The notes: generated by a model from the letters alone, not told the origin. Counted from the stretch's first letter, positions 16,794 through 64,000 are shown. The stretch: DNA of 64,000 nt from Rhodospirillales bacterium (GCA_947445225.1 CANFCX010000001.1:24189-88188); one strand, 5' to 3'. A program made the numbers and translations.

Positions 16794-16801
16794 CGGCTAC
16801 C

Positions 16802-18688
16802 TCAATAAGTCAGGATCAGATTGGCCAGGACGGAATAAAAGAGGTCCTGGCTGCGGCTGGTTTCGTACAGATCGCGCAGCCCGTCGCTCGGCACCAAGAC
16901 CGCGCCGGACAGCCGGAACACGATGTTCTGCATGAACAGAGGCCGGTAGATCGCGGCGACCGAAAGGTCATAACCGATGTCGTGATGGATGTCGGCCTGG
17001 TTGCGGAGGAATTCGAGCGAGGAGGTATCCATGAATTCCAGCTTGTTGAAATTCGTGGACAGCCGCAGTTCCGGGGTCACGTCCATGTCGGTGCCGAAGC
17101 CGAGCAGCCGGATGCCGGGATTGTTGAAATTGGATTGCCCGATTTCCTTCGACGGGCGCAGCGACGGCAACACGCCGTTGCGGGGCGAAAGGGCGACACC
17201 GCCGCCGCCGATGAAGGGGATCGACTGGCGTATCCAATAGCTGGTGTCGGCGCCGGCGAATTGCGGGTTCTCGAAGATGGCGTCGAAACCCTCTTCCCGG
17301 TTGTCGAAGGGGTCCTTGTCGCCGCTGGCGACCAAAGCGGAGGCGCGCACGCGGATCCAGTCGAAATCGATGGAAGGCTCGATCGCGGCGAAATAGGCGC
17401 GAATGTCCGACTTATCGATTCCGCTGAACTGGTTATGATCGTCGGTGCCAAAGGCGTAATAGGCCGAGCCGGTCAGGTTGAGCCGGCCGAAATGCCCGTC
17501 GCCGTTGAGGCCGAGATAGTGGACATCGTATTTGCGCGGCCGCTGGTCGCCGATCGTGGCCGGGCGCTGCAGGAAGAAGTTCTTGTCGTAGTAGAAATCC
17601 TCGCTCTCGTCGTTGACGTTGTACATATACGTCGCCTGCGAGGTGAAGCCGACCACCGGGAAATCCTGCGCATAGACATTGGCAATATAGATATCGTCCT
17701 TGCGCAGCGGCTGGCCGATGTCGTTGAGGCCGCTATTGGTGTCCTTTTCCAGCCGGCGGAACCAGGCCAGATTGTATTGATAGAGGTTGTTCGAGCGGTT
17801 GCCGAACAGTCGCGCGCCCAACTGAATGTCCTGGAACACGAAGCCGCGGAAATCCGAGGAAAACGGCTGGATGCCGATGCGGATCGAATCGAAATCGTAA
17901 CGGTCCGACACGTTGCGTAGGTGATAGTCGATGAAGCCTTCCTGGAAGGCGATCATGTTGTCGGAGCGCACGGTGCCCTGGTTGGGGTCGGCGAACAGCA
18001 CGCCGCGTTCCTCGACCTCCGCGCGGTTGTATTGAATGACCGGCGTGATGCGGAATTCGTAATCGGGCGGGCGGTAGGCGGTGTCGCCCTTGATCAGCGA
18101 GGCGCTCAAGATCACGGTCTCGACGAACACGTTTTGGTTGGTGTCGCCGAACAGATCGACGGAGTTGGCGCGCCGCGTGGTCGAAATGCCCACCGGAATC
18201 GGCGTGCGCCGCGGCTCGTAGACCGTGTCCGAAATCGCGCTGAGGTTGATGAACCAATCGTCCCACAGCGGGCGGTCGCCTTTGAGCGTGTTCTGGTTGT
18301 ACGGGTCCCACCAGCGTTCGTTGACGCCGATCGCCTCGATCAGGCGCCAGCGATCCGGGATCGGGATGAATTCGCGCGGCAACACCGGCGACGGCGGCGG
18401 CACGGCACCGGGATCGGTGATCGGAGCCACGCGCGGCGGCGCGGGCGGCGGCGCGCCGGGCCGCCGCTGATCCTGGGCGACGATGGGCGCGACGGCGCCG
18501 GGTTGGGGAATTCCGAAATTGCCAGGGCTTCTCCCCGCCGGGGCGAGGAGAGGCGATTCCTCCTTGCCGGCCCAGGCCGGAACGGGAAGGCTCACCGCCG
18601 CCAGGGCCAAAATAAGGGGCAGCGAAGCCAATCCCGAAAGTCCGACCGTCTTTGTCCGCCGGCGCATCCTAGATGACCCCGCACACAT
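16802..18688 (-). CDS. Outer-membrane beta-barrel protein (porin-like, ~620 aa)
   Basis: Signal peptide MRRRTKTVGLSGLASLPLILALAAVSLPVPAWA (ATG at 18667 probably the true start); alternating amphipathic strands; C-terminal ...LANLILTY aromatic terminus typical of OMPs. Confidence 0.7.
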   Translation of the reverse strand: MCAGSSRMRRRTKTVGLSGLASLPLILALAAVSLPVPAWAGKEESPLLAPAGRSPGNFGIPQPGAVAPIVAQDQRRPGAPPPAPPRVAPITDPGAVPPPSPVLPREFIPIPDRWRLIEAIGVNERWWDPYNQNTLKGDRPLWDDWFINLSAISDTVYEPRRTPIPVGISTTRRANSVDLFGDTNQNVFVETVILSASLIKGDTAYRPPDYEFRITPVIQYNRAEVEERGVLFADPNQGTVRSDNMIAFQEGFIDYHLRNVSDRYDFDSIRIGIQPFSSDFRGFVFQDIQLGARLFGNRSNNLYQYNLAWFRRLEKDTNSGLNDIGQPLRKDDIYIANVYAQDFPVVGFTSQATYMYNVNDESEDFYYDKNFFLQRPATIGDQRPRKYDVHYLGLNGDGHFGRLNLTGSAYYAFGTDDHNQFSGIDKSDIRAYFAAIEPSIDFDWIRVRASALVASGDKDPFDNREEGFDAIFENPQFAGADTSYWIRQSIPFIGGGGVALSPRNGVLPSLRPSKEIGQSNFNNPGIRLLGFGTDMDVTPELRLSTNFNKLEFMDTSSLEFLRNQADIHHDIGYDLSVAAIYRPLFMQNIVFRLSGAVLVPSDGLRDLYETSRSQDLFYSVLANLILTY

Positions 18689-20558
18689 TCTGCGCCTTGG
18701 TAATGCCCAGGAAGGGGGTGAACGGGCAACTGACGTAACGCAGCCGAGTGCCGCGCGGGGACAGGTTGTCCGACCGCACGGCCGGGCGCGCGTTGCTCAA
18801 TCCGTTGCCCTTGCCGCCATGATAGAGGCCAAGCGCGGCGATCATGTCGTCCTGGTCGATGCCATCGCCCGAAACGCCGACGCCGCCGACCAACACGCCG
18901 TTGCGGTAGATCGGCACGCCGCCGGCGAATATCTGGATGCCGTTGGCCAGCCGGTTGGACCCGCCGGCCGCGGCGACCGCTGCCAGCCCGGTGCAGCCAG
19001 CGGCGTTGGTGGCGTTGCCGGGGTTGGTCAGGTGATTGGCGATGTCGGTGGAGACGAGGTCGAGCTGCAGCCCGGTGCTGAACGGGCTCCATTGCTGAAA
19101 GGGACGGCTCAACGGCCCCACCGACTGGCCATCGACGCCATCGGGGAAATAGGGGCGCGCGATGTTGCCGATGGCGCGAGCGCTATACGCGATGCCGTCG
19201 GCGAAAGCGGTCGGCCCGATCAAGGACCGTGCCTGGGCAATGTAATCGACGGCCAGCGCCAGCGCGGTGATTTCCGCGCCCGCGGTCGTCCGCGAGAAAA
19301 ACACGGCGGTTCGGCCTTTTTGCAGTGACACGTCGGTGCCGAAGACGGGCGCATCGGGGGTACGCACCAAACCCAGGACCAGGCCATTGGTGTCGACCAC
19401 ACTGATGGTGACCTGGGCGTAGCTGCCCAGCGGGCGCCGGATTTGCGCACGCGCCAGAAGCGCCACATCGAGGGCATGGCGCAGGATGGAGTTGACCTCG
19501 GCGGCGGTCAGCACATTGGCCGCGCCACCCACCACGGTGGCGGCGTCGCCACCGGCGGTCGGCGGAAAACGGTTGGCGCCGGCCGCGTTTTCCAACACGA
19601 AGGCGCGGCCGTTGTTGAAGACGCCGCCCGGATCGGGGATGTAGCCCGAACCCGCCGCGCCGAAAACCTGACCGGCGATGACGGCGGCGTTGGCATAACC
19701 GGCGACCGCGACCAGCGCCCCACCGGCGGGCGGGAAAGCCGGGGCCGAGCTGGGGTTGCTGCGGAAATCGGCCGGCGTGGCGTCCGAATAGCGGAGCGTG
19801 CGACCACCGGCGGTGATGCGGTTGGCGCGAATGTCGATGGGCGCGTCGAAGCCGTTGGTCCCGGCCAGCGCGATGACCTCGTCGGGATCGACGTCGCGAT
19901 TGATGATGTCGAGATCCAGGCTGTAGACACCATCGGAGATGGCGCCGACGCCGCCGACGACCCGGCCGTTCTTGTACAAGGGGAAGCCGCCGGTATCGGC
20001 GGACAACCCGGCAGGCGAACGTTTGGGGCCGCGCGTGGCCACGCCGGGGAATTGCAGGTTCAGGTCCGAACACGGCAATTGGCTGAATTGAACGCCGAAC
20101 AGCGGGCCGCCGGGCTGTTGTTTTTCGCCGACGTTGAAATGTTCCTGGACGATCTGGCTGGCCACCCGGGTGGAAAACGCGTTGCCGGCGGACGACAGAT
20201 AAGCGCCGGTGACCGCCTTGGCGATGGCCAAGAGGGTATCGGTATTGGCGATGGCGGCGCCTTCGAGGCCGGTGGCGACACCGCGCCCGGAACTGACCGT
20301 GATCGTCGTTGCGGCGCCGGTCATGCGGAAGACGCCGAGCACGTTGCCGACGCGATCGACGACGGCGATGGTGGCCAACCGGCCGCGCGCCGTGGCCTCC
20401 GTCACCGCCTGCGAAATCACCACGCCGACATCGGCGACCGTGAGGTTCTGCGCGCGCGCCGGAGCGGCGGACAGGGCGGTAAGACCGGCTAGACCCAGCA
20501 GGACCGCGAGAACCCGCCGCGCGACATAGTTCCCGGTCATGGCGGTCCTCGCGGTCAT
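18669..20558 (-). CDS. Secreted protein with two tandem GlcG/HbpS-like (DUF336, haem-binding/degrading-type) domains
   Basis: Signal peptide; motifs RLATIAVVDRVGNVLGVFRMTGA and QVTISVVDTNGLVLGLVRTPDAPVFGTDVSLQKGRTAVFFS, plus GGVGVSGDGIDQDDMIAALG typical of GlcG family. Confidence 0.7.
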   Translation of the reverse strand: MTARTAMTGNYVARRVLAVLLGLAGLTALSAAPARAQNLTVADVGVVISQAVTEATARGRLATIAVVDRVGNVLGVFRMTGAATTITVSSGRGVATGLEGAAIANTDTLLAIAKAVTGAYLSSAGNAFSTRVASQIVQEHFNVGEKQQPGGPLFGVQFSQLPCSDLNLQFPGVATRGPKRSPAGLSADTGGFPLYKNGRVVGGVGAISDGVYSLDLDIINRDVDPDEVIALAGTNGFDAPIDIRANRITAGGRTLRYSDATPADFRSNPSSAPAFPPAGGALVAVAGYANAAVIAGQVFGAAGSGYIPDPGGVFNNGRAFVLENAAGANRFPPTAGGDAATVVGGAANVLTAAEVNSILRHALDVALLARAQIRRPLGSYAQVTISVVDTNGLVLGLVRTPDAPVFGTDVSLQKGRTAVFFSRTTAGAEITALALAVDYIAQARSLIGPTAFADGIAYSARAIGNIARPYFPDGVDGQSVGPLSRPFQQWSPFSTGLQLDLVSTDIANHLTNPGNATNAAGCTGLAAVAAAGGSNRLANGIQIFAGGVPIYRNGVLVGGVGVSGDGIDQDDMIAALGLYHGGKGNGLSNARPAVRSDNLSPRGTRLRYVSCPFTPFLGITKAQNVCGVI

Positions 20559-21025
20559 TGCGCGATACCCACCCGGAACACGCCGAATTTGAAGCTGTCG
20601 GCCGTGCGATAGGCAACGATCACGTTAAAAGGGAATTCCTGGCCGGTGAGGTCTTCCTTCAACACCTTGAAGACGAGCCGGTTGCCGACGGGCTGGATGC
20701 GATTGTCGATCAGATGGTCGGTGTCGCCGTCCCAGCGCACCCAATAGCCGAGATTGCTGCGCTGCAGCAGCAAATTTCCCCAGGGTTTGGCGATGACATA
20801 GGTGGCGAGCGGCTGATCGCCGTGCAGATCGATTTCGCGGATGATCTCGGCGGCCTCCGGGCGAATGGCGATCGGCGCCAGCATCGCACCTTCAACGCTC
20901 AACGCCTCGCCCCGGCCGGACGCCGGGGCCAGCAACGCCAACGCCATGAAAAAAAAGGTAAATCCAAATCTGGACGGACCGGCTTTCGGTCGTGTTCCAC
21001 TTGGATCGTGCGCCAACAGCGCCAT
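20555..21025 (-). CDS. Small secreted hypothetical protein (~156 aa)
   Basis: In-frame ATG (MALLAHDPSG...) downstream of cytochrome stop; hydrophobic FGFTFFFMALALLAPASG signal-like segment; 4-nt overlap with next gene. Confidence 0.5.
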   Translation of the reverse strand: MALLAHDPSGTRPKAGPSRFGFTFFFMALALLAPASGRGEALSVEGAMLAPIAIRPEAAEIIREIDLHGDQPLATYVIAKPWGNLLLQRSNLGYWVRWDGDTDHLIDNRIQPVGNRLVFKVLKEDLTGQEFPFNVIVAYRTADSFKFGVFRVGIAQ

Positions 21026-21072
21026 CCGGTCATCCCCCATTTTTTTTGCCCGGCCAACAAAGCCGCGCCACT

Positions 21073-22779
21073 TTAACGCGGCGCGCCCGTTTGGCCAACC
21101 CCCGGCGCGCCGCCGACGGCTTGCGGACGCATCGGACCCATGGCCGGCGTGTGGAAGACGTGGCAGGCCACGCAGGTCGACGGCACCAACGTAGTCACTT
21201 CTTCCCCGCCATGGCAGCGGCGGCAATTGGCGATCCCCGGGAGCAGGACCTCGGAACTGGCAACGGATTTCGGCGCGGCGTGGCAATCGACGCAATCGGT
21301 GTTTTTGTGTTTGCTGTGATCGAATTTGCCCTTGGGCATCCAGGTCGCCGCCACGAACACCGGCTTGACCCGGAAATTGGGTCTCTCGTCGAGCCGGGTC
21401 GTCCGTTCGACGAGGTGGCAACTCCCGCAGATGCTCTTGCCGTAGACGATCTCGATGGTCGCATCGGCGCGGCTGCGCGCCCAGGCCAGCGCTTCGGTGC
21501 GCGCCGCTTCCTCGATCGGCGTGCCGGCACGGCGACGCACGGCGGCCGGCGCCGTGGGATCCTCGAAACCGCCTTCGAGTGCGACGCGGCCGTAGAAATC
21601 GTTGAGGACCTTGGCGACTTCGTCGGGTTTGCCATGCGGCACTTCGCGGTCGAGCGCCTGGGCCTCGAACTTCAATTTGTGGCAATCGCGGCAATCGGTC
21701 TCCATGTCAACCGCACGCATGCCCACGCCGCCGGTCTCCGGGCGGTGGCAATCATTGCAGACCATTTTCTGCAAGCCGGTGGGGCCACGCACGCCGGCTG
21801 GCACCAAATGTTTGTCATGCGGGAAGATTAGGTTGGAATTTTCCTTCAGCGCCGGATCACCGATCGCCAACCGCGCCAGGGTCCGCGTTGCCGGGTCGGT
21901 CACCACCGACGGCCGAAATTCGGGGTGATCGCGGCCGAAATCGCTGACGTTGATCAGCTTGGTCGTGGGGATGATCGCGGTCAGCCGCACATGGCAATCG
22001 TCGCACAAGGCTTGCGCCGTCTGGATCGCCGGCTGCCGGCCTTGATGTTCCTTGTGGCAAGACGCGCAGCGAGTCTCTTCCAGTGCCGGCAGTTGCACCG
22101 TCTTCACATCGGCGTGGTGGGCGATGTCGCTGTGGCAGGTAAGGCAGGCCTGGTCCTGGACCATGATGAAGGGCCGCTCGTGGCAGGTCGTGCAATCACT
22201 CGCGAAATATTTGTGCACGCCGGAGATTTCGCCGGATTCCCATGACTTGTCCGCCGCGATCGGCATCGCCGTCATGCTTTTGTGAAGGTCGGGTATGAAA
22301 AAGGCAGCGACCGGAAGGACCAGGAAAAGCAGGAGCACGGTGGCGAACGCGGTCCACGACAATACGCGTTTGCTGAACGCGGCATCACCCAGGCGGGCAT
22401 GGCTGCGCTGCGTTAGTTCGGCGAGATCGTCTCCCAGCGGCTGCACCAATTCGACGGTAACCGCGACGCCATAGCCAGGCGGCGCTTCCACCACATCGAT
22501 CTTGTAGGGACCGACGGCGATCGAATCGCCGGGCCGGACACGACCTGAATTGGCGGCGGCGCCATTGATGGAAAGATCGTTGCTGCCAACCGCGGAGGCG
22601 TAGACCTGGCCCTCGCGCACATGTATTTCGGCGTGGTCGAGCGCGACCCGCGGATCAGGAAGATAGACTTCGTTCTTGGTGCCGCGGCCGATGCGGATGA
22701 ATTCCACGGTGGCGTCTTGGTCGCGCCGGGAGACGCCACGATTGCCGCGCCGAGTCAAATAGCCGACTTGGACAAGCAC
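21073..22779 (-). CDS. FHA domain - transmembrane helix - periplasmic decahaem c-type cytochrome fusion (568 aa)
   Basis: N-terminal FHA (IRIGRGTKNEVYLPDPRVALDHAEIHVREGQVYASAVGSNDLSINGAAANSGRVRPGDSIAVGPYKI), TM VLSWTAFATVLLLFLVLPVAAFFIP, then ten CxxCH motifs (CTTCH, CLTCH, CASCH, CDDCH, CNDCH, CRDCH, CGSCH, CVDCH, CRRCH, CVACH); GTG start with GGGAG SD. Confidence 0.85.
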   Translation of the reverse strand: MLVQVGYLTRRGNRGVSRRDQDATVEFIRIGRGTKNEVYLPDPRVALDHAEIHVREGQVYASAVGSNDLSINGAAANSGRVRPGDSIAVGPYKIDVVEAPPGYGVAVTVELVQPLGDDLAELTQRSHARLGDAAFSKRVLSWTAFATVLLLFLVLPVAAFFIPDLHKSMTAMPIAADKSWESGEISGVHKYFASDCTTCHERPFIMVQDQACLTCHSDIAHHADVKTVQLPALEETRCASCHKEHQGRQPAIQTAQALCDDCHVRLTAIIPTTKLINVSDFGRDHPEFRPSVVTDPATRTLARLAIGDPALKENSNLIFPHDKHLVPAGVRGPTGLQKMVCNDCHRPETGGVGMRAVDMETDCRDCHKLKFEAQALDREVPHGKPDEVAKVLNDFYGRVALEGGFEDPTAPAAVRRRAGTPIEEAARTEALAWARSRADATIEIVYGKSICGSCHLVERTTRLDERPNFRVKPVFVAATWMPKGKFDHSKHKNTDCVDCHAAPKSVASSEVLLPGIANCRRCHGGEEVTTLVPSTCVACHVFHTPAMGPMRPQAVGGAPGVGQTGAPR

Positions 22780-22803
22780 GGTATTACTCCCGCTCCGAAA
22801 TCG

Positions 22804-23661
22804 TTACCAGTAGAAGAAAACGGAGAAAACGTGGGTCGTCAGCGCCGCCAAAAGGCCGACCGACAACGGCACGTGGAACATCAGCCAAATTTCCAGGAAA
22901 GCCCGGTATTGCACGTCGCGCCGCGCGCGACCGACAAGGTCGCTCTTGCGGCTCAACAAGGTCAGCAATTTACGCACGGCGACGGCGTCTTCCACCGAGA
23001 CCTTGGTCGCGAGTTGTTTGATCCTGGCCAGCGCGCGCGAAGTCGGGCAATTGGGATCGCGGCCGGAAAGCTGACGCCACACCGACCCGCCGATCTGAGT
23101 ATTGCGTCCGGAATCGAGCACCGCCCGCGTGATCTCGTCGGGCAGTCCCATGGAAACTTCGCGGCTTTCGGTATCGAGCGCGGCGATGCGCGTGAAAATC
23201 TCGGTCAGTGTCAGCCCGCCGCGGTTCTGGGTCATCAAGGCGGGATACCGTTGATAGAAAAACACGCCGAACACGCCCGACAGGATGACCAGCATCATCA
23301 AGGTGTAGGCAAGCGTATGCACGTTCCAGCCGAACTGGAACCCGGTGTGCAGCGTGGCCACGACGATCAGCGCGAGGCCGAGATAGACATGCGCCGATAG
23401 CCAGCCCTGAAGTTTCGTCGGACCCTGGTTGTACCGCCGTTTACGTACGCCGAACCACATCAGCCACAGGATCAAGCCCGCGCCGATCGTGCCCAACACA
23501 TAACCGAGCCACGTGCCGCCATTGGGCGGGTCCAACGGGCTGTGGGCGCCGTAGACGATCGCAGCCGCCAGCGCGCCCAGGACGGCGACCTTCAAATACC
23601 GGAAGTTGCGGTAGACGAGATAGGATTGATGCATCGTCTTTTGGCTGTTGGCCGACCTCAA
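22804..23661 (-). CDS. Polytopic membrane protein with conserved intramembrane histidines (candidate b-type haem/quinol-interacting subunit)
   Basis: 285 aa, five predicted TM helices each with His (SAHVYLG, TLHTGF, NVHTLAY, MFHVPLS, TTHVFSV); TTG start overlapping upstream stop (TTGA). Confidence 0.55.
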   Translation of the reverse strand: MRSANSQKTMHQSYLVYRNFRYLKVAVLGALAAAIVYGAHSPLDPPNGGTWLGYVLGTIGAGLILWLMWFGVRKRRYNQGPTKLQGWLSAHVYLGLALIVVATLHTGFQFGWNVHTLAYTLMMLVILSGVFGVFFYQRYPALMTQNRGGLTLTEIFTRIAALDTESREVSMGLPDEITRAVLDSGRNTQIGGSVWRQLSGRDPNCPTSRALARIKQLATKVSVEDAVAVRKLLTLLSRKSDLVGRARRDVQYRAFLEIWLMFHVPLSVGLLAALTTHVFSVFFYW

Positions 23662-26057
23662 AGACCCCGGTTAGACAGCGAGAAGAATTCCTCGGGGCTG
23701 ACACGAATGGCGGCGCCGGTCGGACAGGCCCGCACGCAGGACGGGCCGCCTTCGATGCCTTTGCACATGTCGCATTTCACCGCCATCTTGCGTTTGTTCG
23801 GGTCTTTTTTCTTGCCGTGGGTGGCTTCCCAATCCTCGCCCGGCCCGTGGCCCAGCCCGAACAACATCCAGGCCAGCAAGCCCGGCTTGGCCGGCGGCTC
23901 CGCCGACATGTGAATGACGTGATAAGGACAATTGCGCTCGCAATTGCCGCAACCGATGCATTTTTCGTCGATGAACACTTCACCATTGGGCGAACGGTGG
24001 ATGGCGTCGGCCGGGCAATCGGACATGCAATGCGGGTGTTCGCAATGCCGGCACGAGGTTGGCACATGGATCGAGGCATAGGTCGGGCCGGCTTCGCGAT
24101 CCAGCCGCGACACCCCGTGATGGGTCTCGGCGCAGGCCTTTTCGCAATTGTCGCACCGCACGCACAGCGATTCGTCGATCAACAGAACGTCGGTCGCCTC
24201 GCCCAAACCTTGGTCGAGCAGGAACTGCATCAGATTCGAATGGTCGGGCCGGCCTTCCATGCGGGCGTTTTCGACGAGCCGTGCCTGGAACCGAGATTCG
24301 ACCTCGACGCGCAACTCGGGCGAGCGATCGAGCAGGCCGCGGAAGGCGCCGCCATCGAGTTTGATGGCCTCCGTCGCCACCGCCGCCCGCACCGTGGCGG
24401 TGCGCGGGCTCTTGGTCAGCAGCGCCATTTCGCCGACATAATGGCCGGCGGGGACATAGGACAAAACCACGTCGCGGCCGCCCAGGTTGCGCGCCACGGT
24501 CACCGACCCGCTGCGGATCAAATAGACGTTGTCGCCGATATCGCCTTCCTTGATCAGCACGTCGCCGGCGCTGAAGGACTGGATCGTGGCCGTGCGCACG
24601 ACATCGACCAGGTCGCGCTTGGAGACCTGCGGCGCTAGATGCGTCTGCACCTGGCGGATCATGGCGGTTTCGTCGAGCACACGTTTAGCCGCGGCGATCG
24701 AACGGGTCAGCTTGATAACCTGCCGGCGCGGGGTCTCGATCAACACGCAATCGGCGCCCGCCACCACCGTCGCCGTGCGCCGGCGGCCGGAGATCAAACC
24801 CATCTCGCCGAAGAATTCGCCGGTCTTCAGCGTCACCTTGATCGCTGGGTTTTCGGCGCTGACCTGGACATCGACCGACCCCGACAGGATCGAATAGAAG
24901 CTGTCGGAATAATCGTTGCGCTTGAAAACGATCTCGCCCTGTTTGGGCACATGGACGTCGCTGTCGAGCAGGAATTCGCGAAGCTGCAGCTTGGTCAACG
25001 AGGAGAACATCGGCACGCGCTGCTGCACGCCCTCCAGGAACTGCGAGACGGTCACCCCTTGCAGCCCCGTGAGTTTTGCCTCGAGCAGCGGCTCGTCCGC
25101 CGGCTTCACCTCATGCCCGAGGATATATTCGACCACCTCGTAGCCCTGGTTCATGCAGTGTTTGATCAGGGGATAACCGGCGAGCGCGCCGATGATGTAC
25201 AGCCCCTTCACGTTCGATTCGTAGCTGTCGCTGACCCCCGGAACCGAGGCCGGATCGGCGTTGGGGAACACGATGCCGCAGGCCTCGACGAATTTGCGCG
25301 GCGGCAGGGCGCCGATACGGGCGATGACCCGGTGGCACTTGACCACCGCCTCGCCCTCCGGCGTTTTCAGGAAAATGGCGCTGGGATCGGTCTCGACCTT
25401 AATGACCTTGGTATTGAAATAACACTGGATGCGGCCTTCCTTGATGGCCGATTCGATCAGCGCGACGTTGCCCGCCTTGGCGCGCGCGAAATCACCCATG
25501 ACGTTGACGACGATGACCTCGTTTTGGGCGGCCAGCGCGATGGCGTTTTCGAGCCCGGCATCACCGGCGCCGATCACAACGATGGTTTCGTCTTTGTATT
25601 CTTCCGGGTCGTCGAGTTGGTACTGGACGTTGGGGCCGGTTTCGCCGGGTACGCCGAGGGTGCGGATATTGCCCTGCAACCCAATGGCGAGCACGACGGC
25701 ATCGGCGGTGAGCGTTTGTTTGTTGGCGAGCGTGATCGTGAAGATCGCGCCTTCCTTCTTGATGCCCGCGACATCGGCGTTTTGGCGCAGGTTGAATTTC
25801 AACTCGCCGGCGCTTTTGTCCCAGGAACCGAGGATGGTTTCGCGGGCGCCTTCCTTGAATTGAAGATCGCTGCGCAGGGGCAGGACCTCCGGCGTCGCCA
25901 TGACGTGTTTTTTCTTCTGATACTTGTAGATCGTATCGGAAAGATGGGTGGTGCGTTCGAGCAGCACATAAGACGCGCCACGCTTGGCCGCGCGTCCCGC
26001 CGCGCTTAATCCGGCCGGGCCCGATCCGACAATCGCGATCGCATAGTGTTCGGCCAT
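23658..26057 (-). CDS. FAD/NAD(P)-binding oxidoreductase fused to two cNMP-binding domains and a C-terminal 4x[4Fe-4S] ferredoxin domain (799 aa)
   Basis: GSGPAG and GAGDAG dinucleotide folds; two CRP-type cNMP signatures (FGEMGLISGRRRTATVVA; VGEMALLTKSPRTATVRA); four Cys clusters CVRCDNCEKAC, CRHCEHPHCMSDCP, CIGCGNCERNCP, CDMCKG..CVRACP. Confidence 0.85.
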   Translation of the reverse strand: MAEHYAIAIVGSGPAGLSAAGRAAKRGASYVLLERTTHLSDTIYKYQKKKHVMATPEVLPLRSDLQFKEGARETILGSWDKSAGELKFNLRQNADVAGIKKEGAIFTITLANKQTLTADAVVLAIGLQGNIRTLGVPGETGPNVQYQLDDPEEYKDETIVVIGAGDAGLENAIALAAQNEVIVVNVMGDFARAKAGNVALIESAIKEGRIQCYFNTKVIKVETDPSAIFLKTPEGEAVVKCHRVIARIGALPPRKFVEACGIVFPNADPASVPGVSDSYESNVKGLYIIGALAGYPLIKHCMNQGYEVVEYILGHEVKPADEPLLEAKLTGLQGVTVSQFLEGVQQRVPMFSSLTKLQLREFLLDSDVHVPKQGEIVFKRNDYSDSFYSILSGSVDVQVSAENPAIKVTLKTGEFFGEMGLISGRRRTATVVAGADCVLIETPRRQVIKLTRSIAAAKRVLDETAMIRQVQTHLAPQVSKRDLVDVVRTATIQSFSAGDVLIKEGDIGDNVYLIRSGSVTVARNLGGRDVVLSYVPAGHYVGEMALLTKSPRTATVRAAVATEAIKLDGGAFRGLLDRSPELRVEVESRFQARLVENARMEGRPDHSNLMQFLLDQGLGEATDVLLIDESLCVRCDNCEKACAETHHGVSRLDREAGPTYASIHVPTSCRHCEHPHCMSDCPADAIHRSPNGEVFIDEKCIGCGNCERNCPYHVIHMSAEPPAKPGLLAWMLFGLGHGPGEDWEATHGKKKDPNKRKMAVKCDMCKGIEGGPSCVRACPTGAAIRVSPEEFFSLSNRGL

Positions 26058-26244
26058 GCCGGTCCGCCCCCTCGGACACGTCAGCGTTTGTCGAGACCCC
26101 CCCGAACCCGAATCGACGCTTTACGAAAGGCCCGCGCCGCCAGGATTTCATATACACGTTAGGGTTATAGACCGACGGTTGTCAATTTCGGAGTGTCCTT
26201 CTACAGTGCATTTCTGTCCGGTCGAACGCACCCGCAACAGGGGG

Positions 26245-27933
26245 AACCATCGGGTGACGAAGCGGCAAGCTTTGCATCGCCTATCGCTAAAATCCGCGGC
26301 CGGCGCCGTGGCGTTGGTTTGCCTTGCCGGATCGGCGGTGGGGCAGGTCGCCGGCAGTGGCTGGATCGTCGATCCGCGATCGGGTTGTGCAACCAGCAAT
26401 CCCTTTCCCAAGGACGGCGAGAGCATCGCTTGGTTTGGCGGCTGCCGCGACGGCAAACTCGACGGGCCCGGCCTGCTTATCTGGTACCGAAGCGGGTTTG
26501 AGGCCGAACGCGACGAGGGTTTTTTCCAAGGCGGGGAGCTGGACGGACCGGCGACGATCACCTTCGCCGACGGTAACTCCGTGCGCGGCGATTACCGCAT
26601 GGGTGAACGCCATGGCGAGTTCCTCGTCCATCAGCGCGACGGAACCGCCCTTTATCGCCTCTACGATCTCGGCCGGCTCGCCGCCGAACGCCCGGCCACC
26701 GGCGAAGATGCCGTGCGCCTCCAATCGCGTGCGACCGCCGCCGTCGCCCCAATCGCACCCACGCCCGTGCCGGCCGCCCCACCGCGCGCCCAAGCGGCGG
26801 CGCCTCCTGCCATGGCCGAACCGGAACCCAGGCCGATGGCGGCCGCGCCGATCGAGCCGCTGCGGCCGCAGCCCGCCCCGCCACCATTGGCCAGCCTGAC
26901 CCCACCGCCACCGCCGCCGCCGCTGCCCGCCCCCACCCGGCCTTCGACATCGGCGGCATTCGGCAGCGCGGCGCGCAGCGACGTCGAAATCGACCTGGGC
27001 GTGTTGGCGTCGCTGCGGGCGCCATCGGCGGCGTCCTCCAGTCGATCGACCGCGCCGGTGAAGCTGCGTCCGCCTCGGGCGGCCGCGCCAACGGCGGCGA
27101 CGCGACGCGCCCCGGTCCAGGCCGCGGTTCGGCCCGCCGTGTTCGTCGATGCCTCGGTGATCGACGGTCTGGGCGCGGTTCGCGCGGTCGCCGCCGCCAG
27201 GCCCGCCGCCACCCGCGCCAACTTCGTCCAGCAATCCGCCGCGCTGGTGCCGGATTGGTACTTGCCCGCGGGACAGACTTTCGCTGCGGCGGACTACACC
27301 CCAGCCGCCGCGCCGATCTCCGCGGTCACGCCTGAAATTCTTTTCGCCGAGGGCTACCGCCACGAGCGCGACGGGCGCATGAGCCAGGCCGAGGCGCTCT
27401 ACGATACCGTCTACCGCCTCTATGCCGAAACGCCGATGGCAGTCCTCGCCGGGGAACGCCTGGCCTGGGTGCGGCAGCAAACCACCGGTTTGCCCATGCC
27501 GCAGCAAACCATGCTGGCCGCCGCCGGAAGTGCCTCGATCGGGCAGTCCACGACCCCGATCGGGCGGTCAACCGCGCCGATCCCGCCGGCGACGACACCA
27601 ATGTCGCCCGCGACCGCGACTTTCGCGCCGCCGCAGCCGTCGGCGCCGCCGGTGCAGTCCGCGCAAATTCCGGTCGCCGCCGTGGTGCGTTCACGTGTGG
27701 GCGCCTATCTGTGCACCGTCGATGGGCTGTATTCCAACAGCTCGCGCTGGTGCGGCGTTGTCCGCCGTGAATATGACCGTTATTTCGAGGTCGAGGTCAG
27801 CAAGGTGACGATCAAGACGCCGCTGGCCGTGGGCTTTAACAGTTCGGCCTGTACCGGCAACAAGTTCATCGGCTATTTCTCTTTCGGCGAGCGCGTCTGG
27901 GTACCCCAGAATTGCATGGCGGAGACTCTTTAA
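26245..27933 (+). CDS. Secreted MORN-repeat protein with Pro/Ala-rich linker and Cys-containing C-terminal domain
   Basis: GTG start 26245 with GGGGGAA SD; signal peptide VTKRQALHRLSLKSAAGAVALVCLAGSAVGQ; MORN-like repeats WFGGCRDGKLDGPGLLIWY..GFFQGGELDGPATITFADGN..GDYRMGERHGEFL. Confidence 0.6.
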   Translation, partial: NHRVTKRQALHRLSLKSAAGAVALVCLAGSAVGQVAGSGWIVDPRSGCATSNPFPKDGESIAWFGGCRDGKLDGPGLLIWYRSGFEAERDEGFFQGGELDGPATITFADGNSVRGDYRMGERHGEFLVHQRDGTALYRLYDLGRLAAERPATGEDAVRLQSRATAAVAPIAPTPVPAAPPRAQAAAPPAMAEPEPRPMAAAPIEPLRPQPAPPPLASLTPPPPPPPLPAPTRPSTSAAFGSAARSDVEIDLGVLASLRAPSAASSSRSTAPVKLRPPRAAAPTAATRRAPVQAAVRPAVFVDASVIDGLGAVRAVAAARPAATRANFVQQSAALVPDWYLPAGQTFAAADYTPAAAPISAVTPEILFAEGYRHERDGRMSQAEALYDTVYRLYAETPMAVLAGERLAWVRQQTTGLPMPQQTMLAAAGSASIGQSTTPIGRSTAPIPPATTPMSPATATFAPPQPSAPPVQSAQIPVAAVVRSRVGAYLCTVDGLYSNSSRWCGVVRREYDRYFEVEVSKVTIKTPLAVGFNSSACTGNKFIGYFSFGERVWVPQNCMAETL

Positions 27934-29117
27934 TGGCTGATCGGTTCAAGACCCGTCTTTTGGTCACGAGTTTTCTGACCGGCGTCGCCGTTGCCGGGAT
28001 CCTGACCGGCGCACCCGATCGGGCCGAAGCGCAAACCGTGCTGTCGATCGGCTCCCTGGACGGATTGAATACCTTCCTCTCCGGCATGGACGCGGCCTTG
28101 CGCGCGGCGCGCGTGGCGGGCGATTCGGCGAGCGCGGCCGGCACCGGCGATCTGACCGTCTGGCACAATCCTAGCGAGGCCCGTAGCTGGTCGGACTCCG
28201 CCGCCGCCGCGGACGACCCGTGGACAAAGGCCAATCTGAAAGTCGTCGATCTGTTCACCCAAATGGGTGGGGAACGTATGGACCGCGCCCTTGTGTTCCG
28301 GCGCGGCGCGGACGGCTTCTCCGCCGCCATCGACGGCATGGGCGCGGCCTGGTTCGCCGCGGCCGAGGCCGCTCAGGTCGGGTTGCTCCGCCAATTGGTC
28401 AAGGACAGCGCCGCGGTGCCCACCGCGCTTAAGGACGCGGTCGCCGACGCCGATGCCGAGACCTTGGGTGATGTCGTCGCCGCGGTGGCGCAAGCCGCGC
28501 GCAGCGGCGTGATCTTCCTGACCCGCGGGGGCACGGCCACCGTCACCATTCGCGACCCCCAAATCAGCGTCGCCGGTGGCGCGCCCTTTGTGTTGTCGCC
28601 CAGCGGCATCGTTGTCGGCGACATCGCGGTTTCCGGCGCCACCCAATTGTCGGTGGCGCTGACCGCGCCCGGCGACATCGCCGACGGCCAGCACCTTCTC
28701 TATGTCTACAATCCCGGCCGCGCCTTGCTGGCGGCCGCCGAATTCCAGATTTCGATCGCCAACGGGGCGACCGTCGCCGCCCTGCCGGTTTCGGCGACGG
28801 CTCCAGCTTCGGGTGTCGCCCTTCTCCCCGCCAATGGCAGCATCGATGGCCGCGTCGCCTCGGGACAGGAAGCGGTCTACCGCTTCGACCTGCTCGCCCC
28901 CGCCGCCGTCGCCATCCATTCGACCGGCCCAACCGATGTTTTTGGCCGGCTCGAAAACGCCAATGGGACGGTGCTCGCCGAAAACGACGATGGCGGCAGT
29001 TGGTACAATTTCAGGCTGGCCCGTAACCTCGCCGCCGGCACCTATTACCTGCGGGTGCGCCATTGCTGCTCCGGCAATGGCAGCTTCACCCTGAACACGG
29101 CGACGGCGGCGCAGTAG
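27933..29117 (+). CDS. Secreted protein with C-terminal pre-peptidase (PPC)-like beta-sandwich domain
   Basis: TAATG overlap with upstream gene; signal peptide; C-terminal GQEAVYRFDL..GPTDVFGRLENANGTVLAENDDGGSWYNFRL..AGTYYLRVRH matches PPC-type domain. Confidence 0.55.
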   Translation: MADRFKTRLLVTSFLTGVAVAGILTGAPDRAEAQTVLSIGSLDGLNTFLSGMDAALRAARVAGDSASAAGTGDLTVWHNPSEARSWSDSAAAADDPWTKANLKVVDLFTQMGGERMDRALVFRRGADGFSAAIDGMGAAWFAAAEAAQVGLLRQLVKDSAAVPTALKDAVADADAETLGDVVAAVAQAARSGVIFLTRGGTATVTIRDPQISVAGGAPFVLSPSGIVVGDIAVSGATQLSVALTAPGDIADGQHLLYVYNPGRALLAAAEFQISIANGATVAALPVSATAPASGVALLPANGSIDGRVASGQEAVYRFDLLAPAAVAIHSTGPTDVFGRLENANGTVLAENDDGGSWYNFRLARNLAAGTYYLRVRHCCSGNGSFTLNTATAAQ

Positions 29118-29122
29118 CAGTA

Positions 29123-29156
29123 ATGGGGGCCGCAGGCCCCCACCCCCGATAATTGT
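29123..29156. repeat. ATGGGGGCCGCAGGCCCCCACCCCCGATA hairpin element (same family as 1331-1350, 12691-12720, 31741-31770)
   Basis: Read directly in the intergenic gap between convergent genes. Confidence 0.55.
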
Positions 29157-31295
29157 TTACCGAACCGGCCGGGGTTGGGCGATGCCGCCGAATTCCAGGT
29201 CGACGAGGGCCTGGAATTTGCGGCGGATTTCCTGGGTCAGGTCGCGCGCCTGTTCCGGGTTGCGGACGATGCGCGGGGTGAGCAGCACGATGAGTTCCGT
29301 GCGGCTGGCGCTTTCGTTCTTGGCGCCGAACAATGCGCCCACCACTGGAATCTGATGCAGGAAGGGGATGCCCGAATCGCCCTTGTCGTTGCGCTCGCGG
29401 ATCAACCCGCCGAGCAGCACGGTCGATCCTGTCTCCACCGCTACGGTTGACAGAATCCGGCGCTGGCTGAAGGTCGGCGAATCGATGTTGGTGACCGTCG
29501 TGCGGCTGACGTCGCTGACCGATTGGATGATGTCGAGGGTCACGATCCCGCTGGCATTGACCCGCGGCGTGACCTCGAGGATAACGCCGGTGTCGCGATA
29601 TTGAACGGTGTTGACGATCAAGGGAGTCGCGGTCACCGCGCTGGTCGCCGTTTGTGTGATGATCGGCACGACGTCGCCGACCTGAAGCCGCGCGATCTGG
29701 TTGTCGAGCACGAGAAGCTGCGGCGACGAAATCACGTTGATCTGGGTGAGCGAAGACAACGCATCGAGAACCGCGCGCGTCTGGCCGCCATTGGTCAGGC
29801 TGAATGCAAAACCCGGCAGGGTCGGCGAGATGCCCGTGGTTAGGGCGCCGGTGGAGAGGATCGTCCGCCCGTTATCGGCGATGCCCAACCCGCCGCTCTG
29901 CAGGAAATATTGCAGCCCGTATCGCAGCGAATTGTTGAGCGTGACTTCGACGATGCTGGCTTCGATCAACACCTGAAGCGGCACGATGTCGAGCTGATTG
30001 AGCACATCCTGGACCAGGGCGTAGTCGCGGCTGGTCGCCGAAATCAGCAAGGCATTGCCGGCCTCGTCCGCGGTCACCCGCACCGGCCCGCGGCCTCCGG
30101 CCACGGCGATCGTGGCCTCCACGCGCGGCCCATCGGAAGGGGCACCGGCCGCCGGCGATAGCCCTTGCGGCTCGTTTGCCGGCGCGTTCACCCGTCCCAG
30201 CGTTTCCTCGCCGTTGCGGCCGAAGATGCCTTGCAGAATCTTGACCAGCTCGGTCGCCTTGGCGTTTTGGACGCGATAGACGAAAAGCTGCGGATCGGCG
30301 GCGTTGCGCGTGCGATCGAGCCGCGTAATCCAGTGGAACGCCTCTTCGACGTAACGCTGTTCGCGCGCCATCACGATCACGGCGTTGAGGCGGTTGACCG
30401 GGATGAAGCGGACCTGGCCCGCCAGCAAGCCCTTTTGCTGGCCGCCGAAGATGTTGTTCAGGTCATTGACCAGAACGTTGACGTCGATGTTATCCACGCT
30501 CGCCAGCAGCATGTTCATGCCGGCGAACTGATCGACATCGAACAAACGGACCGATTCCTGGACCGAGGCAATTTCCTGCGCGTTGCCGGCGACGATGAGA
30601 AGGCCGCGTGATTCGTCCACGATGACGATCCGGCCTTTCGGCACGATCAGTTCCAGCACCTTCTGAAGTTCGGTGGCGGAAATGAATTGCAGCGGGAAGA
30701 CTTGCAGGCTCTGGCCGGCGGGCAACGGCAGGCCGGCCACGCCGGGGCGCGGCGCCACGCCAGGGCGCACGCCCTCGCGCTGCACGACCACGCGGTACAG
30801 CCCGGCGGTCTCGATCAAGGTCGCGCCGCGCGCGTTCAATGCCGCCTCCAAAACCGGCAGCACCGCGTCGCGCGTCAACGGGCGCGCGGTACGCAGGGTG
30901 ACGGTTCCCGATACGTCGGGATCAATCAAGTAGTTGAGGCCCAGTATGTCGCGCAGCACCACGCCGATGACCTCGCGGATATCGGCATCCTCGAAATTCA
31001 GGGTGACGTCGCCGATGGCATTGGGCCGGGGCGTCCTGGGTTCGCCGACCGCGTCCCGGCCGGAAGCCGGGTAGAATTCCTCGATCTTGGCGGCAACCGG
31101 CGTGCGGGTTTGAGACGCCGGCAGCGGCGCCGCGGGCCGCACGGCCGCGATCGGCGGCGGCGGGGCAGGGGCGATCCGTGTCTGCGGCGGCAGGCCGGGC
31201 GGCGTCCCGGCGGCAGGGATGTCCTGGAGCGGGTCGAGGCCACAGCCGGCGAGCAGCAGCAAGACAGCAGCGAATGGACGTGCCGATCGGATCAA
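29157..31295 (-). CDS. gspD: Secretin, GspD-type (type II secretion outer-membrane channel), lipoprotein-type signal, isolated from other gsp genes
   Basis: 712 aa; N-terminal MIRSARPFAAVLLLLAGCG lipobox; N0 domain (VTLNFEDADIREVIGVVLRDILGLNYLIDP..); C-terminal secretin domain (..VVGALFGAKNESASRTELIVLLTPRIV). Confidence 0.85.
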   Translation of the reverse strand: MIRSARPFAAVLLLLAGCGLDPLQDIPAAGTPPGLPPQTRIAPAPPPPIAAVRPAAPLPASQTRTPVAAKIEEFYPASGRDAVGEPRTPRPNAIGDVTLNFEDADIREVIGVVLRDILGLNYLIDPDVSGTVTLRTARPLTRDAVLPVLEAALNARGATLIETAGLYRVVVQREGVRPGVAPRPGVAGLPLPAGQSLQVFPLQFISATELQKVLELIVPKGRIVIVDESRGLLIVAGNAQEIASVQESVRLFDVDQFAGMNMLLASVDNIDVNVLVNDLNNIFGGQQKGLLAGQVRFIPVNRLNAVIVMAREQRYVEEAFHWITRLDRTRNAADPQLFVYRVQNAKATELVKILQGIFGRNGEETLGRVNAPANEPQGLSPAAGAPSDGPRVEATIAVAGGRGPVRVTADEAGNALLISATSRDYALVQDVLNQLDIVPLQVLIEASIVEVTLNNSLRYGLQYFLQSGGLGIADNGRTILSTGALTTGISPTLPGFAFSLTNGGQTRAVLDALSSLTQINVISSPQLLVLDNQIARLQVGDVVPIITQTATSAVTATPLIVNTVQYRDTGVILEVTPRVNASGIVTLDIIQSVSDVSRTTVTNIDSPTFSQRRILSTVAVETGSTVLLGGLIRERNDKGDSGIPFLHQIPVVGALFGAKNESASRTELIVLLTPRIVRNPEQARDLTQEIRRKFQALVDLEFGGIAQPRPVR

Positions 31296-53989: not shown

Positions 53990-54028
53990 GACGATCGCTG
54001 CCGGCGGCGCCGATCCCGCTCTGTCCGG

Positions 54029-55247: not shown

Positions 55248-55392
55248 GGTTCGTCTCCTAACGCCAACACTTGACCTCAAGATAGCGCGAATGCGCCCGC
55301 TGGAAAGACGTTGTTTCGGTCACATCGCGTTGATCTGGGATTTCCAGCGGTCGCTTGTGACAAGGAAGACGGAAGCGATTAGGTTCTGGCGC

Positions 55393-57624: not shown

Positions 57625-57654
57625 TCGCGCCGTCCCGCGTCCGATCGTCTTGCC

Positions 57655-58470: not shown

Positions 58471-58652
58471 ACCGGTTCGCTCCGGTTCATCGCAGCGACA
58501 CGGCGCCGCGCGGCCGCCTAATTCCGACCGATAGAACGTCATATTCCCGCCGTTGACTTGACCCGCCCGCCCGCCAATACTTGTCGTTTTTCCGCGGGGG
58601 GCCCGGTGGGCTTGAGGAAGGGCGGGCGACCGCCCCAGCAACAGGAGCAGCA

Positions 58653-62839: not shown

Positions 62840-63352
62840 ATGGAATTTGTGCTGATCGCACTGGGCACCAATCTCGGCGACCGGCTTGCCAATCTCGGCG
62901 CGGCCCTGCGCGGGCTCGATGGGCCGCTTCGCGACATCGTCACCTCCCCGGTCTATGAAACCGCGCCGCGTTATGTCGAAGACCAGCCGCCTTTCCTCAA
63001 CATGGCCGCACGTGCGGAGACGACCCTCGCGCCGCTCGATCTGCTGGTCAGGCTCAAAGACATCGAACGGGCGCTAGGACGCAAAGATGGCGTGCGCAAC
63101 GGCCCCCGCCTCATCGACCTCGACATCATTTTCTATGGCGCGCGCGTTCTGCGCCTGCCGGGGCTGACCATCCCCCATCCCAGGCTGGCGGAGCGCAGCT
63201 TCGTGCTTCGCCCGCTCGCCGATATCGCGCCCACGTGGCGGCATCCGGAGACGGGCGCGACGGTGACCGAAATGTTGGCCCCCATCGCCGACGATCCCGG
63301 CGTGAGGCTGGCGACGCGGCAATTTGAGCCGATTGCGGGGGGCCCGCGCTAA
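62840..63352 (+). CDS. folK: 2-amino-4-hydroxy-6-hydroxymethyldihydropteridine pyrophosphokinase
   Basis: MEFVLIALGTNLGDRLANL..SPVYETAP..GPRLIDLDII typical HPPK. Confidence 0.9.
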   Translation: MEFVLIALGTNLGDRLANLGAALRGLDGPLRDIVTSPVYETAPRYVEDQPPFLNMAARAETTLAPLDLLVRLKDIERALGRKDGVRNGPRLIDLDIIFYGARVLRLPGLTIPHPRLAERSFVLRPLADIAPTWRHPETGATVTEMLAPIADDPGVRLATRQFEPIAGGPR

Positions 63353-63831
63353 CGCGGCGGCGCGCGCGTGGGACCGAGAACGACGCTGTGTTCGCCCGCG
63401 GCCGATCCCAGAAGGATGCGGTCCTGGGCAATGGACTTCACGGTCCAGCCTTCGATGTCGCCGCCTTCGGGCACGCGCAGGACGCGGCCGGTATTGCCTT
63501 CCCGAAGCATCACAAAACGCCGATCGCCGGAAGTGACCACGCCGGTCAACCGATACCGTCCGATGGTAGCGCCGTCGGGTGCAACCTGGCCGGCCTGGCT
63601 TGGCGCCGGCGCCGCTCGCCGCGCCGCGACAAAAAGCGGGCGGCGGAGCGAATCGGCGAGCGCTTCGAAAGGCGGCAGAACCGGCAGGGCGGCGCCTTCG
63701 GCCCCCTGACCCGGTTGGCGCCCCGAGGCCGGCGGGGAATCGTCCATCGGCAGCACCCAGGGAAGGCCGCCGAGGATGATGAAGACGGCGATCGCCGCCG
63801 CCAGCCTTACGCCCGCGCGTCCCGCTTTCAT
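63349..63831 (-). CDS. Inner-membrane-anchored protein with PilP/GspC-type C-terminal domain (T2SS GspC/GspN-like)
   Basis: N-terminal TM (AAAIAVFIILGGLPWVL), C-terminal YRLTGVVTSGDRRFVMLREGNTGRVLRVPEGGDIEGWTVKSIAQDRILL resembling HR/PilP domain; ATGA coupling to upstream partial gene. Confidence 0.4.
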   Translation of the reverse strand: MKAGRAGVRLAAAIAVFIILGGLPWVLPMDDSPPASGRQPGQGAEGAALPVLPPFEALADSLRRPLFVAARRAAPAPSQAGQVAPDGATIGRYRLTGVVTSGDRRFVMLREGNTGRVLRVPEGGDIEGWTVKSIAQDRILLGSAAGEHSVVLGPTRAPPR

Positions 63832-64000
63832 CGGAACCCCGCCGGCTGCGCGCCAGCCGCCAGCGGCCGGAATCCAACGACGTCGAACTGCACATCGAGA
63901 TTCCGCCCGGCGCCCACGGCCTGGCTCGTGCGCGCCCCGATCGTCACGTTGTCGATCAGAAGCACCGGCCGTTCGCTTTCGAGGGCGTGAAGGAGCGCGA
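63828..64000 (-). CDS. Partial (3' end only) gene, possibly GspM/GspL-like secretion component
   Basis: Frame translates to ...ALLHALESERPVLLIDNVTIGARTSQAVGAGRNLDVQFDVVGFRPLAAGAQPAGFR*; assignment by context only. Confidence 0.25.
   Translation of the reverse strand, partial: ALLHALESERPVLLIDNVTIGARTSQAVGAGRNLDVQFDVVGFRPLAAGAQPAGFR

Follow-up and report, generated by a model that had tools for sequence, protein, structure and literature searches.

The gspD gene lies on the minus strand of a 64,000-nucleotide stretch of a Rhodospirillales bacterium assembly (GCA_947445225.1, CANFCX010000001.1:24189-88188; hereafter the window, with positions counted from its first letter), and it encodes a type II secretion system (T2SS) secretin of 712 amino acid residues (aa). 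Open reading frames (ORFs) were screened via third-position GC because the G+C content of the window is ∼65%, and three genuine genes were found to fill positions 26254-31295: gspD and the convergent genes ORF1 and ORF2. In a sequence-only reading of this DNA, gspD had been described as an orphan that stands alone. The present analysis suggests instead, with a probability of about 80%, that the secretin is the cognate liposecretin, the outer-membrane channel, of a split chromosomal Xps-like T2SS. The features of gspD and of the T2SS genes at the right edge of the window are given below.

29157..31295, minus strand: gspD, T2SS secretin of the lipoprotein type, 712 aa (Pfam, TIGR02517, solved relatives, Shine-Dalgarno sequence plus TTG start)
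∼31242-31295, minus strand: signal peptide and lipobox of gspD
between signal peptide/lipobox and N0, minus strand: Pro/Ala-rich linker of gspD, ∼80 aa
∼30789-31001, minus strand: N0 domain of gspD, residues 99-169 (Pfam type_II_gspD_N0, 61 bits)
between N0 and the secretin domain, minus strand: N1-N3 of gspD (Pfam Secretin_N, three stretches)
∼29262-29762, minus strand: secretin domain of gspD, residues 512-678 (Pfam Secretin, 152 bits)
63349..63831, minus strand: short GspC/XpsN-like gene, 160 aa, last in a T2SS operon (faint T2SSC and HofP matches; GspC_delta, E 0.002)
63831..64000, minus strand: 3' end of gspM, truncated where the window stops (tblastn, GspM residues 136-191, 100% identity)

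GspD was tested against the NCBIfam model TIGR02517 and the Pfam models PF00263, PF03958 and PF21305. TIGR02517 ("type II secretion system secretin GspD") matched with 472.6 bits against a cut-off of 351.35, and the alignment ran end to end, with residues 99-687 placed onto model positions 1-600. The Pfam scan gave N0, three Secretin_N stretches and Secretin, and no further domains. Only 34 residues (679-712) follow the Pfam Secretin domain, the alignments to solved GspD chains stop near residue 694, and no long C-terminal S-domain is apparent. By sequence similarity, the nearest solved structures are the 15-mer GspD/XcpQ channels 5wq7, 5wln and 5zdh. PilQ, MshL, HofQ and SctC were each considered as identities for the secretin and rejected, given that their NCBIfam scores were far under the respective cut-offs. 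It is scarcely credible that the gene encodes the secretin of another machine, namely a type IV pilus, a Tad pilus, a competence system, a type III secretion system (T3SS) or a filamentous phage. Secretin domains are common to these systems, and there are the sub-threshold matches just named, but only the GspD equivalog passed its cut-off; moreover, a GspD-type N0 is present, the orthologues lie in T2SS operons, and the surroundings of gspD showed no pil, tad, T3SS or phage genes.

Translated from the TTG at 31295, the N-terminus of GspD reads MIRSARPFAAVLLLLAGC followed by GLD, and a Shine-Dalgarno sequence (AGGGGGA) is located 7 nt 5' of this codon. The protein carries an LLLLAGC lipobox, and its N-terminus is, judging from the sequence, a lipoprotein signal peptide; we infer that GspD is lipidated and self-piloting. 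The full-length secretin with N0-N3 and a lipobox that the sequence-only reading had described was thus confirmed. In the public gene call P0001 (701 aa) the start was placed 11 codons too late, and the signal peptide is therefore cut. No pilotin gene was seen in the neighbourhood of gspD, and a consensus promoter/terminator scan yielded no usable gspD promoter. When a genome collection was scanned with the secretin, the best relatives were 33-36% identical (Thermohalobaculum, Caulobacter, Planctomycetota), the lineage itself being absent among the species representatives.

A tblastn search with all T2SS proteins detected nothing in the window beyond the gspM tail and the 160-aa gene, in agreement with the earlier statement that no gspC/E/F/G genes adjoin gspD and that the only other T2SS-like genes begin at 63349. 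These genes proved to be the 3' end of an operon complete but for a secretin. A look-up of the 160-aa protein reported contigs of 0.2-1 Mb with its gene and yielded the metagenome contig L001. This contig, which is 99.991% identical to positions 53349-64000 over 10,652 bp, runs past the window end, and the L001 locus ends 10 kb 5' of the 160-aa gene. Its operon has the order gspO, E, F, G, H, I, J, K, L-like, M and the 160-aa GspC-like gene, with the Pfam/NCBIfam labels Peptidase_A24, T2SSE, T2SSF, T2SSG, GspH, I, J, T2SSK, PilM/PilN-type for the L-like protein, and T2SSM. GspG and GspM_XpsM scored over their cut-offs, most components fell under the NCBIfam equivalog cut-offs, and GspE reached 625 bits (cut-off, 630). 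The best NCBIfam names were XpsH, XpsI and GspM_XpsM for H, I and M, and GspF/XpsF for F. The 160-aa protein consists of an N-terminal hydrophobic segment (identified by eye) and a PilP/HR-like C-terminal part. No secretin gene was found in the operon or in ∼2 kb 5' of gspO. A complete T2SS operon without its own secretin is thus present on the contig, which is the finding that the sequence-only reading had named as making gspD simply the displaced gene, and the terms "orphan" and "stands alone" do not hold.

The gspD gene is located on the same contig and the same strand as this operon, 32 kb downstream. The genes between them are ubiX-like, cobO, cobQ, cobD, cbiX, cbiC, several corrin methylases, cbiG, cbiD and cobK, followed by genes for an adenylate cyclase, a transporter and SCO1, cobB, a gene for an MscK-like channel, and argD, argF, hsp33, folB and folK.

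The position of gspD in related loci was compared. GspD of L013, L014/L015 and L016 (48-50% identity over most of the length) and of L019 (61% over the C-terminal part) is encoded in the same operon, where the start of gspD and the end of a gene of 160-173 aa are at most a few bases apart. The 160-aa gene is homologous to the genes located between gspM and gspD in L013, L014 and L016. The gene order around gspD in L013, L014, L016 and L019 is that of Xanthomonas Xps, E-F-G-H-I-J-K-L-M-N(C)-D; the window does not have this contiguous order, which is kept through the GspC-like gene, with D displaced by 32 kb. Because the operon 32 kb away is complete but lacks gspD, and because the relatives carry gspD inside the operon, the secretin is not regarded as an orphan.

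Detached gspD genes were also found in L011/L012 (54% identity), in L031 (∼70%, secretin domain), in a 104-kb JGI contig with P0127 and in the Stellaceae contig L032. In a rough neighbour-joining (NJ) tree of the secretin domain (191 columns), the window grouped with the detached copies of L011 and L031, next to which came L032 (detached) and L013 (in-operon), with the other in-operon copies further out. The split of gspD therefore looks like a derived trait common to a sub-lineage and not like a recent accident. The sources of the GspD homologues name them as Alphaproteobacteria, Stellaceae or Kiloniellales. A TPR_CcmH_CycH-like gene lies beside the detached gspD of L011 (261-1082), L032 (8677-9786) and the P0127 contig, and beside gspE in L014 (1596-2009); in the window an Mpo1-like gene lies beside gspD instead.

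A lipobox-like motif after a hydrophobic stretch was found in at least 82 of the 120 best GspD homologues, about two thirds, by a permissive regular expression combined with inspection, and those without it have mostly evidently truncated gene starts. Since the in-operon orthologues P0006 (LWLAGC), P0014 (ALAGC) and P0015 (GLAAC) carry the motif too, the lipobox is, on sequence comparison, a clade-wide trait and not a mark of isolation or a sign of orphan status. The proposal of an isolated, HxcQ-like dedicated channel is not supported. That the protein is a true orphan liposecretin, apart from the operon and dedicated to ORF1/ORF2, is very improbable. It is true that the transcription of gspD is separate from that of the operon, 32 kb away, that the block of gspD and ORF1(-ORF2) holds together through rearrangements, and that several relatives have a detached gspD (L011, L031, L032, the P0127 contig). 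Nevertheless, the nearby operon is complete save for the secretin and the orthologous gspD lies inside that operon, GspD retains N0-N3, by which a secretin docks onto the inner-membrane platform and GspC, and the lipobox is not particular to the detached copies. T2SS secretins moreover need a pseudopilus and an ATPase to drive export, which counts against a channel working by itself.

If the secretin is instead the cognate channel of the split T2SS, the gspO-E-F-G-H-I-J-K-L-M operon with the GspC-like gene, ending at 63349, would supply the inner-membrane platform, the ATPase, the pseudopilins and the prepilin peptidase. The gspD gene, once located directly after the GspC-like gene, now lies 32 kb further on, behind cobalamin and other housekeeping genes, and must therefore have a promoter of its own. 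Through the Pro/Ala-rich tether of ∼80 residues, the N0 ring of the liposecretin would be able to reach the GspC-like platform protein. The ORF1-ORF2 module would have travelled with gspD when the locus was split. Both proteins would be exported by Sec, most likely ORF2 as a T2SS-dependent exoprotein or surface protein and ORF1 either as a second cargo or as a periplasmic, secretin-proximal accessory protein. The features of the two genes are as follows.

26179..26207, plus strand: sigma-70-like promoter match 5' of ORF1 (9/12 consensus positions)
26254..27933, plus strand: ORF1, exported, 559 aa (likeliest start, GTG at 26254; identical to database protein P0125)
N-terminus of ORF1, plus strand: signal peptide (signal-peptide-like, judged by eye)
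residues 37-165 of ORF1, plus strand: MORN-fold domain (AlphaFold, beta-hairpin repeats, predicted local distance difference test (pLDDT) >90)
between the MORN-fold domain and the TPR-like unit of ORF1, plus strand: disordered Pro/Ala-rich linker, ∼190 aa
residues 358-411 of ORF1, plus strand: three-helix TPR-like unit (AlphaFold)
between the TPR-like unit and the beta domain of ORF1, plus strand: second disordered Pro/Ala-rich linker, ∼70 aa
residues 481-559 of ORF1, plus strand: 4-Cys SH3/KOW-like beta domain (AlphaFold)
27933..29117, plus strand: ORF2, exported, 394 aa (signal-peptide-like N-terminus, by eye, ending in APDRAEA before Q)
after the signal peptide of ORF2, plus strand: predicted mainly helical N-terminal domain, immunoglobulin (Ig)-like beta domain and C-terminal PPC domain
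29125..29141, no strand assigned: GC hairpin GGGGGCC-GCA-GGCCCCC, a perfect 7-bp stem within the 39-bp gap between ORF2 and gspD

The stop codon of ORF1 and the ATG of ORF2 overlap by one base (TGATG, 27931-27935), and the two genes are translationally coupled. ORF2 and gspD are convergent, with 39 bp between their stop codons, and the hairpin within this gap looks from its sequence like a bidirectional terminator; the consensus terminator scan passed over it because it has no T-run. Two convergent, co-transcribed secreted proteins immediately upstream of gspD had been described in the sequence-only reading. The proteins are indeed exported-looking and coupled, but the pair is located at the 3' end of gspD, being "upstream" in window coordinates only, and the start of ORF1 was off by 9 nt. 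The promoter match 5' of ORF1 is weak evidence (two sites in the scan, 0.6 expected); it sits in a 197-bp divergent region shared with a flavoprotein gene at 23658-26057 (minus strand).

The association of the pair with gspD was followed through related loci. In L014 and L016, ORF1 and then ORF2 converge on gspD (ORF2 homologues, E 1e-44 to 8e-47). When metagenomes were scanned with a 62-aa alignment of the MORN domain, further ORF1 loci came to light: L019 (on a contig of 2.28 Mb that carries the canonical operon), L020, L023 and L024. All four have ORF1/ORF2 convergent to gspD; gspK precedes the module and gspD in L023 and L024. In L026, ORF1 adjoins ORF2 and the contig ends before any gspD position. 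L011/L012, L013, L031 and the P0127 contig lack ORF2, and the convergent neighbour of gspD is a protein of 183-256 aa matching the C-terminal half of ORF1 only. Altogether, about ten related loci of three layouts have ORF1, with or without ORF2, in convergent orientation to gspD: at the operon end, after gspK (L023/L024), and detached beside a cytochrome cluster (the window, L011, L031 and the P0127 contig). The pair is missing beside gspD in distant members of the GspD clade, namely L032 (by tblastn) and the P0099 contig (by Pfam labels only), and the distant MORN-only homologues L027-L030 (36-40% identity) have no T2SS neighbours. Because these loci do not show it, the association, which is real, is confined to one sub-clade.

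Gene order inherited without functional meaning, with ORF1 and ORF2 as unrelated neighbours, is an improbable account of this pattern. The loci without the pair or without T2SS neighbours would fit it, as would the placement of the genes on the opposite strand and a functional link drawn from synteny. However, the adjacency is kept down to 45-60% GspD identity, it outlives at least three rearrangements with the orientation always convergent, and some members of the ORF1 family have gained a GspD-type N0 domain. The conserved synteny argues against independence of ORF1/ORF2 from the secretin, and the ORF1-ORF2 module is probably linked in function to the secretin and the T2SS. Of the cargo/channel set proposed earlier, the functional tie to the secretin and T2SS is thus favoured, and the dedicated channel is not.

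Several points weigh against the secretin serving this operon together with its companions. The pairing of gspD with the operon is drawn from genomic context, and the coverage consists of the window plus L001, a part of the genome, so that a second gspD or a second T2SS elsewhere is possible. The 32-kb interval shows no sign of a displacement mechanism: it contains no mobile-element gene, transposase, integrase, tRNA or repeat, and no Rfam family was found as a clue to the displacement. The NJ tree was built on 191 columns only, without support values. An Mpo1-like gene (ATG at ∼31343) is divergent from gspD, 47 bp from its start, and no gspD promoter was identified there. The pair is lacking beside gspD in L032 and the P0099 contig, as noted; it is never co-oriented with gspD, and synteny cannot separate a cargo role from an accessory role.

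Within ORF2, the PPC domain (PF04151, residues 313-376) passed narrowly, with 28.8-28.9 bits against a gathering threshold of 25.9, and the homologue L016_394 gave 29.2 bits; the PPC label given earlier is correct, if marginal. The AlphaFold model of ORF2 was poor (pLDDT 46, from a three-sequence alignment), and a word-indexed homology search returned only two proteins. The signal peptide, the Ig-like domain and the PPC domain give ORF2 the look of an exoprotein or surface protein. An invariant HCCxGxG motif, with a His followed by two neighbouring Cys, closes the PPC domain in all eight ORF2-family sequences of alignment A5 (ORF2 C-terminus, window 28930-29117); it might be a metal site or a vicinal disulfide.

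For ORF1, an AlphaFold model was obtained from a 36-sequence family alignment, with three confident modules. Pfam MORN (PF02493) matched a single stretch below threshold (20.6 bits, gathering 22.5; E 3.8e-4), and in a Foldseek search of the model against the PDB the top 30+ matches were all MORN proteins (E 2.9e-5 and weaker). The AlphaFold module and the Foldseek matches support the label of MORN-repeat protein given in the sequence-only reading; it stands by predicted fold, though under the Pfam threshold. The family profile matched the CpoB/YbgF TPR domain (E 2e-8), and in its predicted fold the TPR unit resembles BamD, YbgF and FimV. The 4-Cys C-terminal domain has no Pfam model, and a word-indexed homology search with the C-terminal part returned only two proteins.

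An exhaustive profile search with ORF1 gave 230 cluster representatives at E ≤0.001, of which ∼65, with sizes of 82 to 761 aa, span the TPR unit and the 4-Cys domain. The N-terminal MORN domain is present in about half of those ∼65, and several carry a lipobox-like motif, for example the short members P0127, P0131 and P0136. The family was also scanned with a hidden Markov model built on the N0 domain of the GspD clade itself. In 8 of 69 members (P0181, P0132, P0189, P0137, P0134, P0135, P0147 and P0194) it detected strong N0 domains (E 1e-14 to 4e-22), located between the linker and the TPR unit, whereas these proteins have no secretin domain; Pfam gave sub-threshold matches. A free-standing N0 on a tethered periplasmic protein is unusual and might bind a GspC-like partner. 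The family, which combines MORN, a long Pro-rich linker, an optional GspD-type N0, TPR and the 4-Cys SH3/KOW-like domain, is undescribed.

ORF1 itself has a single three-helix TPR unit, no N0 and no canonical lipobox, with A-L-V before the sole Cys of the signal peptide and Val at -1. Its identity as a pilotin of the PilF/PilW or TadD type was considered and rejected, the canonical lipobox being lacking and only one TPR unit being present. With small interaction modules on long tethers, a BamD/YbgF/FimV-like TPR, and relatives with N0 or lipobox-like motifs, ORF1 resembles a secreted enzyme no more than it does an envelope scaffold. It is tentatively possible, at clearly less than even odds, that ORF1 is a secretin-associated periplasmic scaffold or assembly factor, with a role like that of PilF/PilW, TadD, FimV or BamD, and that ORF2 is its exported partner or an unrelated passenger. 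ORF1 shares with PilF/PilW, TadD, FimV, BamD and CpoB/YbgF a TPR-like unit, a gene beside the secretin gene and, in some family members, a lipobox-like motif; it differs in its single TPR unit (known pilotins have many more repeats), its lack of a canonical lipobox, and MORN and SH3/KOW-like domains that are foreign to those proteins. Against such a role also stand the absence of N0 and the gene being always convergent to the T2SS genes and not co-transcribed with them. Homology of ORF1 to known T2SS accessory proteins was not found by Pfam and NCBIfam scans, nor was membership in the PilF/PilW, TadD, FimV, BamD or CpoB/YbgF families found at the sequence level. In addition, a pilotin is considered unnecessary for liposecretins (Viarre et al. 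2009, as cited elsewhere).

On the far side of ORF1 from gspD lies a conserved series of seven genes for multihaem cytochromes and associated proteins:

12846-26057, minus strand: the seven-gene series as a whole
within 12846-26057, minus strand: LVIVD-repeat decahaem protein, 1315 aa, 10 CXXCH, signal peptide
within 12846-26057, minus strand: outer-membrane protein (OMP)-like protein, 628 aa; HbpS-like protein, 629 aa; small ORF
within 12846-26057, minus strand: FHA-plus-decahaem protein, 568 aa; cytochrome b561-like protein
23658-26057, minus strand: flavoprotein, 799 aa, with Pyr_redox, two cNMP-binding domains and 4Fe-4S motifs

The order of the series is conserved in L021 and in the P0127 contig (JGI 3300047160). 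In the latter the whole series adjoins an ORF1-like gene and gspD, and in L011 and L031 the first gene of the series does so. The series resembles an envelope-spanning electron-transfer module; a literature search for the combination of LVIVD and a multihaem cluster returned no description, its one result, a Tenderiales preprint, being unrelated. Just beyond the right end of the window (L001:509-1852) lies a multihaem gene of the cytochrome c554-like kind, with 4-5 haem motifs. Each locus that covers the 5' end of the T2SS operon (L001, L013, L014, L016 and L023) has such a gene there in divergent orientation. In L021 (9375-10642) and L022 (800-1725), the flavoprotein/cytochrome cluster is directly preceded, in the same orientation, by a stand-alone gspG paralogue, 64% identical to GspG of the operon, and after it a gene for an ORF1-like protein of 247 aa with MORN only. 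A gene for a 1478-aa Gly/Asp-rich repeat protein, RTX- or adhesin-like by eye, lies immediately 5' of the gspG paralogue (L021:4664-9100, minus strand).

The locus was compared with known systems. It resembles Xanthomonas Xps in the gene order of its orthologous loci, in its lipoprotein secretin (lipidation of XpsD was shown experimentally; PMC7777525) and in the names XpsH, XpsI and GspM_XpsM. It differs from Xps in that gspD is 32 kb off, that gspO heads the operon whereas Xps borrows PilD, that the GspC-like protein has only 160 aa, and that the ORF1/ORF2 module and cytochrome genes flank the T2SS genes. The lineage, by the source names of the homologues, is alphaproteobacterial.

HxcQ of Pseudomonas aeruginosa, the model for the dedicated channel, serves the dedicated substrate LapA and is reportedly encoded inside the hxc cluster, hence not an isolated secretin. 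Compared by features and not by phylogeny, GspD shares with it the N-terminal lipobox, the linker to N0 and the lack of an apparent long C-terminal S-domain, but the lipobox of GspD is clade-wide, regardless of gene position. The consequence to be expected of the shared features is outer-membrane targeting that is self-piloted and independent of a pilotin (Viarre et al. 2009, as cited elsewhere). Lsp of Legionella, a single T2SS spread over five lsp clusters with contexts differing between species (PMC6617341), offers a precedent for a secretin gene located away from most gsp genes; there lspD stays with lspE, whereas here only gspD and its convergent companions are detached.

In Shewanella oneidensis, a GspD-dependent T2SS is needed for the surface multihaem cytochromes MtrC and OmcA (PMC1974784). 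The likeness is that gspD and ORF1 adjoin a cluster with two decahaem proteins and an OMP-like protein, and the link is one of gene neighbourhood only and not of homology to Mtr. ORF1 and ORF2 could belong to an alphaproteobacterial Xps-like T2SS as a component so far unrecognised, or form its dedicated substrate set; in the lineage of the window, gspD-ORF1 could be wired to the multihaem cluster, and the T2SS could assemble or display an envelope-spanning electron-transfer apparatus, as Gsp of Shewanella does for MtrC/OmcA; this proposal is speculative and rather unlikely.

For annotation, these results call for caution, in that a lone gspD with a lipobox is no evidence for an orphan dedicated channel; here the lone gspD would complete a neighbouring secretin-less T2SS, and lipobox and detachment appear to be lineage traits. 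The remaining interest lies in a conserved, uncharacterised exported pair that follows the secretin through rearrangements, near a multihaem cluster. If ORF1 and ORF2 turn out to act as substrates or accessory factors of the T2SS, they would offer a way into the role of the Xps-like T2SS in uncultured environmental Alphaproteobacteria and might reveal a new connection between T2SS and electron transfer.

A cobalamin cluster was also identified in the window at 31779-53989 (cobO, cobQ, cobD, cbiX, cbiC, several corrin methylases, cbiG, cbiD, cobK and cobB), and no cobalamin riboswitch was detected at Rfam gathering thresholds. The cluster is broken by genes for an adenylate cyclase, a CitMHS transporter and a methyltransferase/ATP-grasp fusion.

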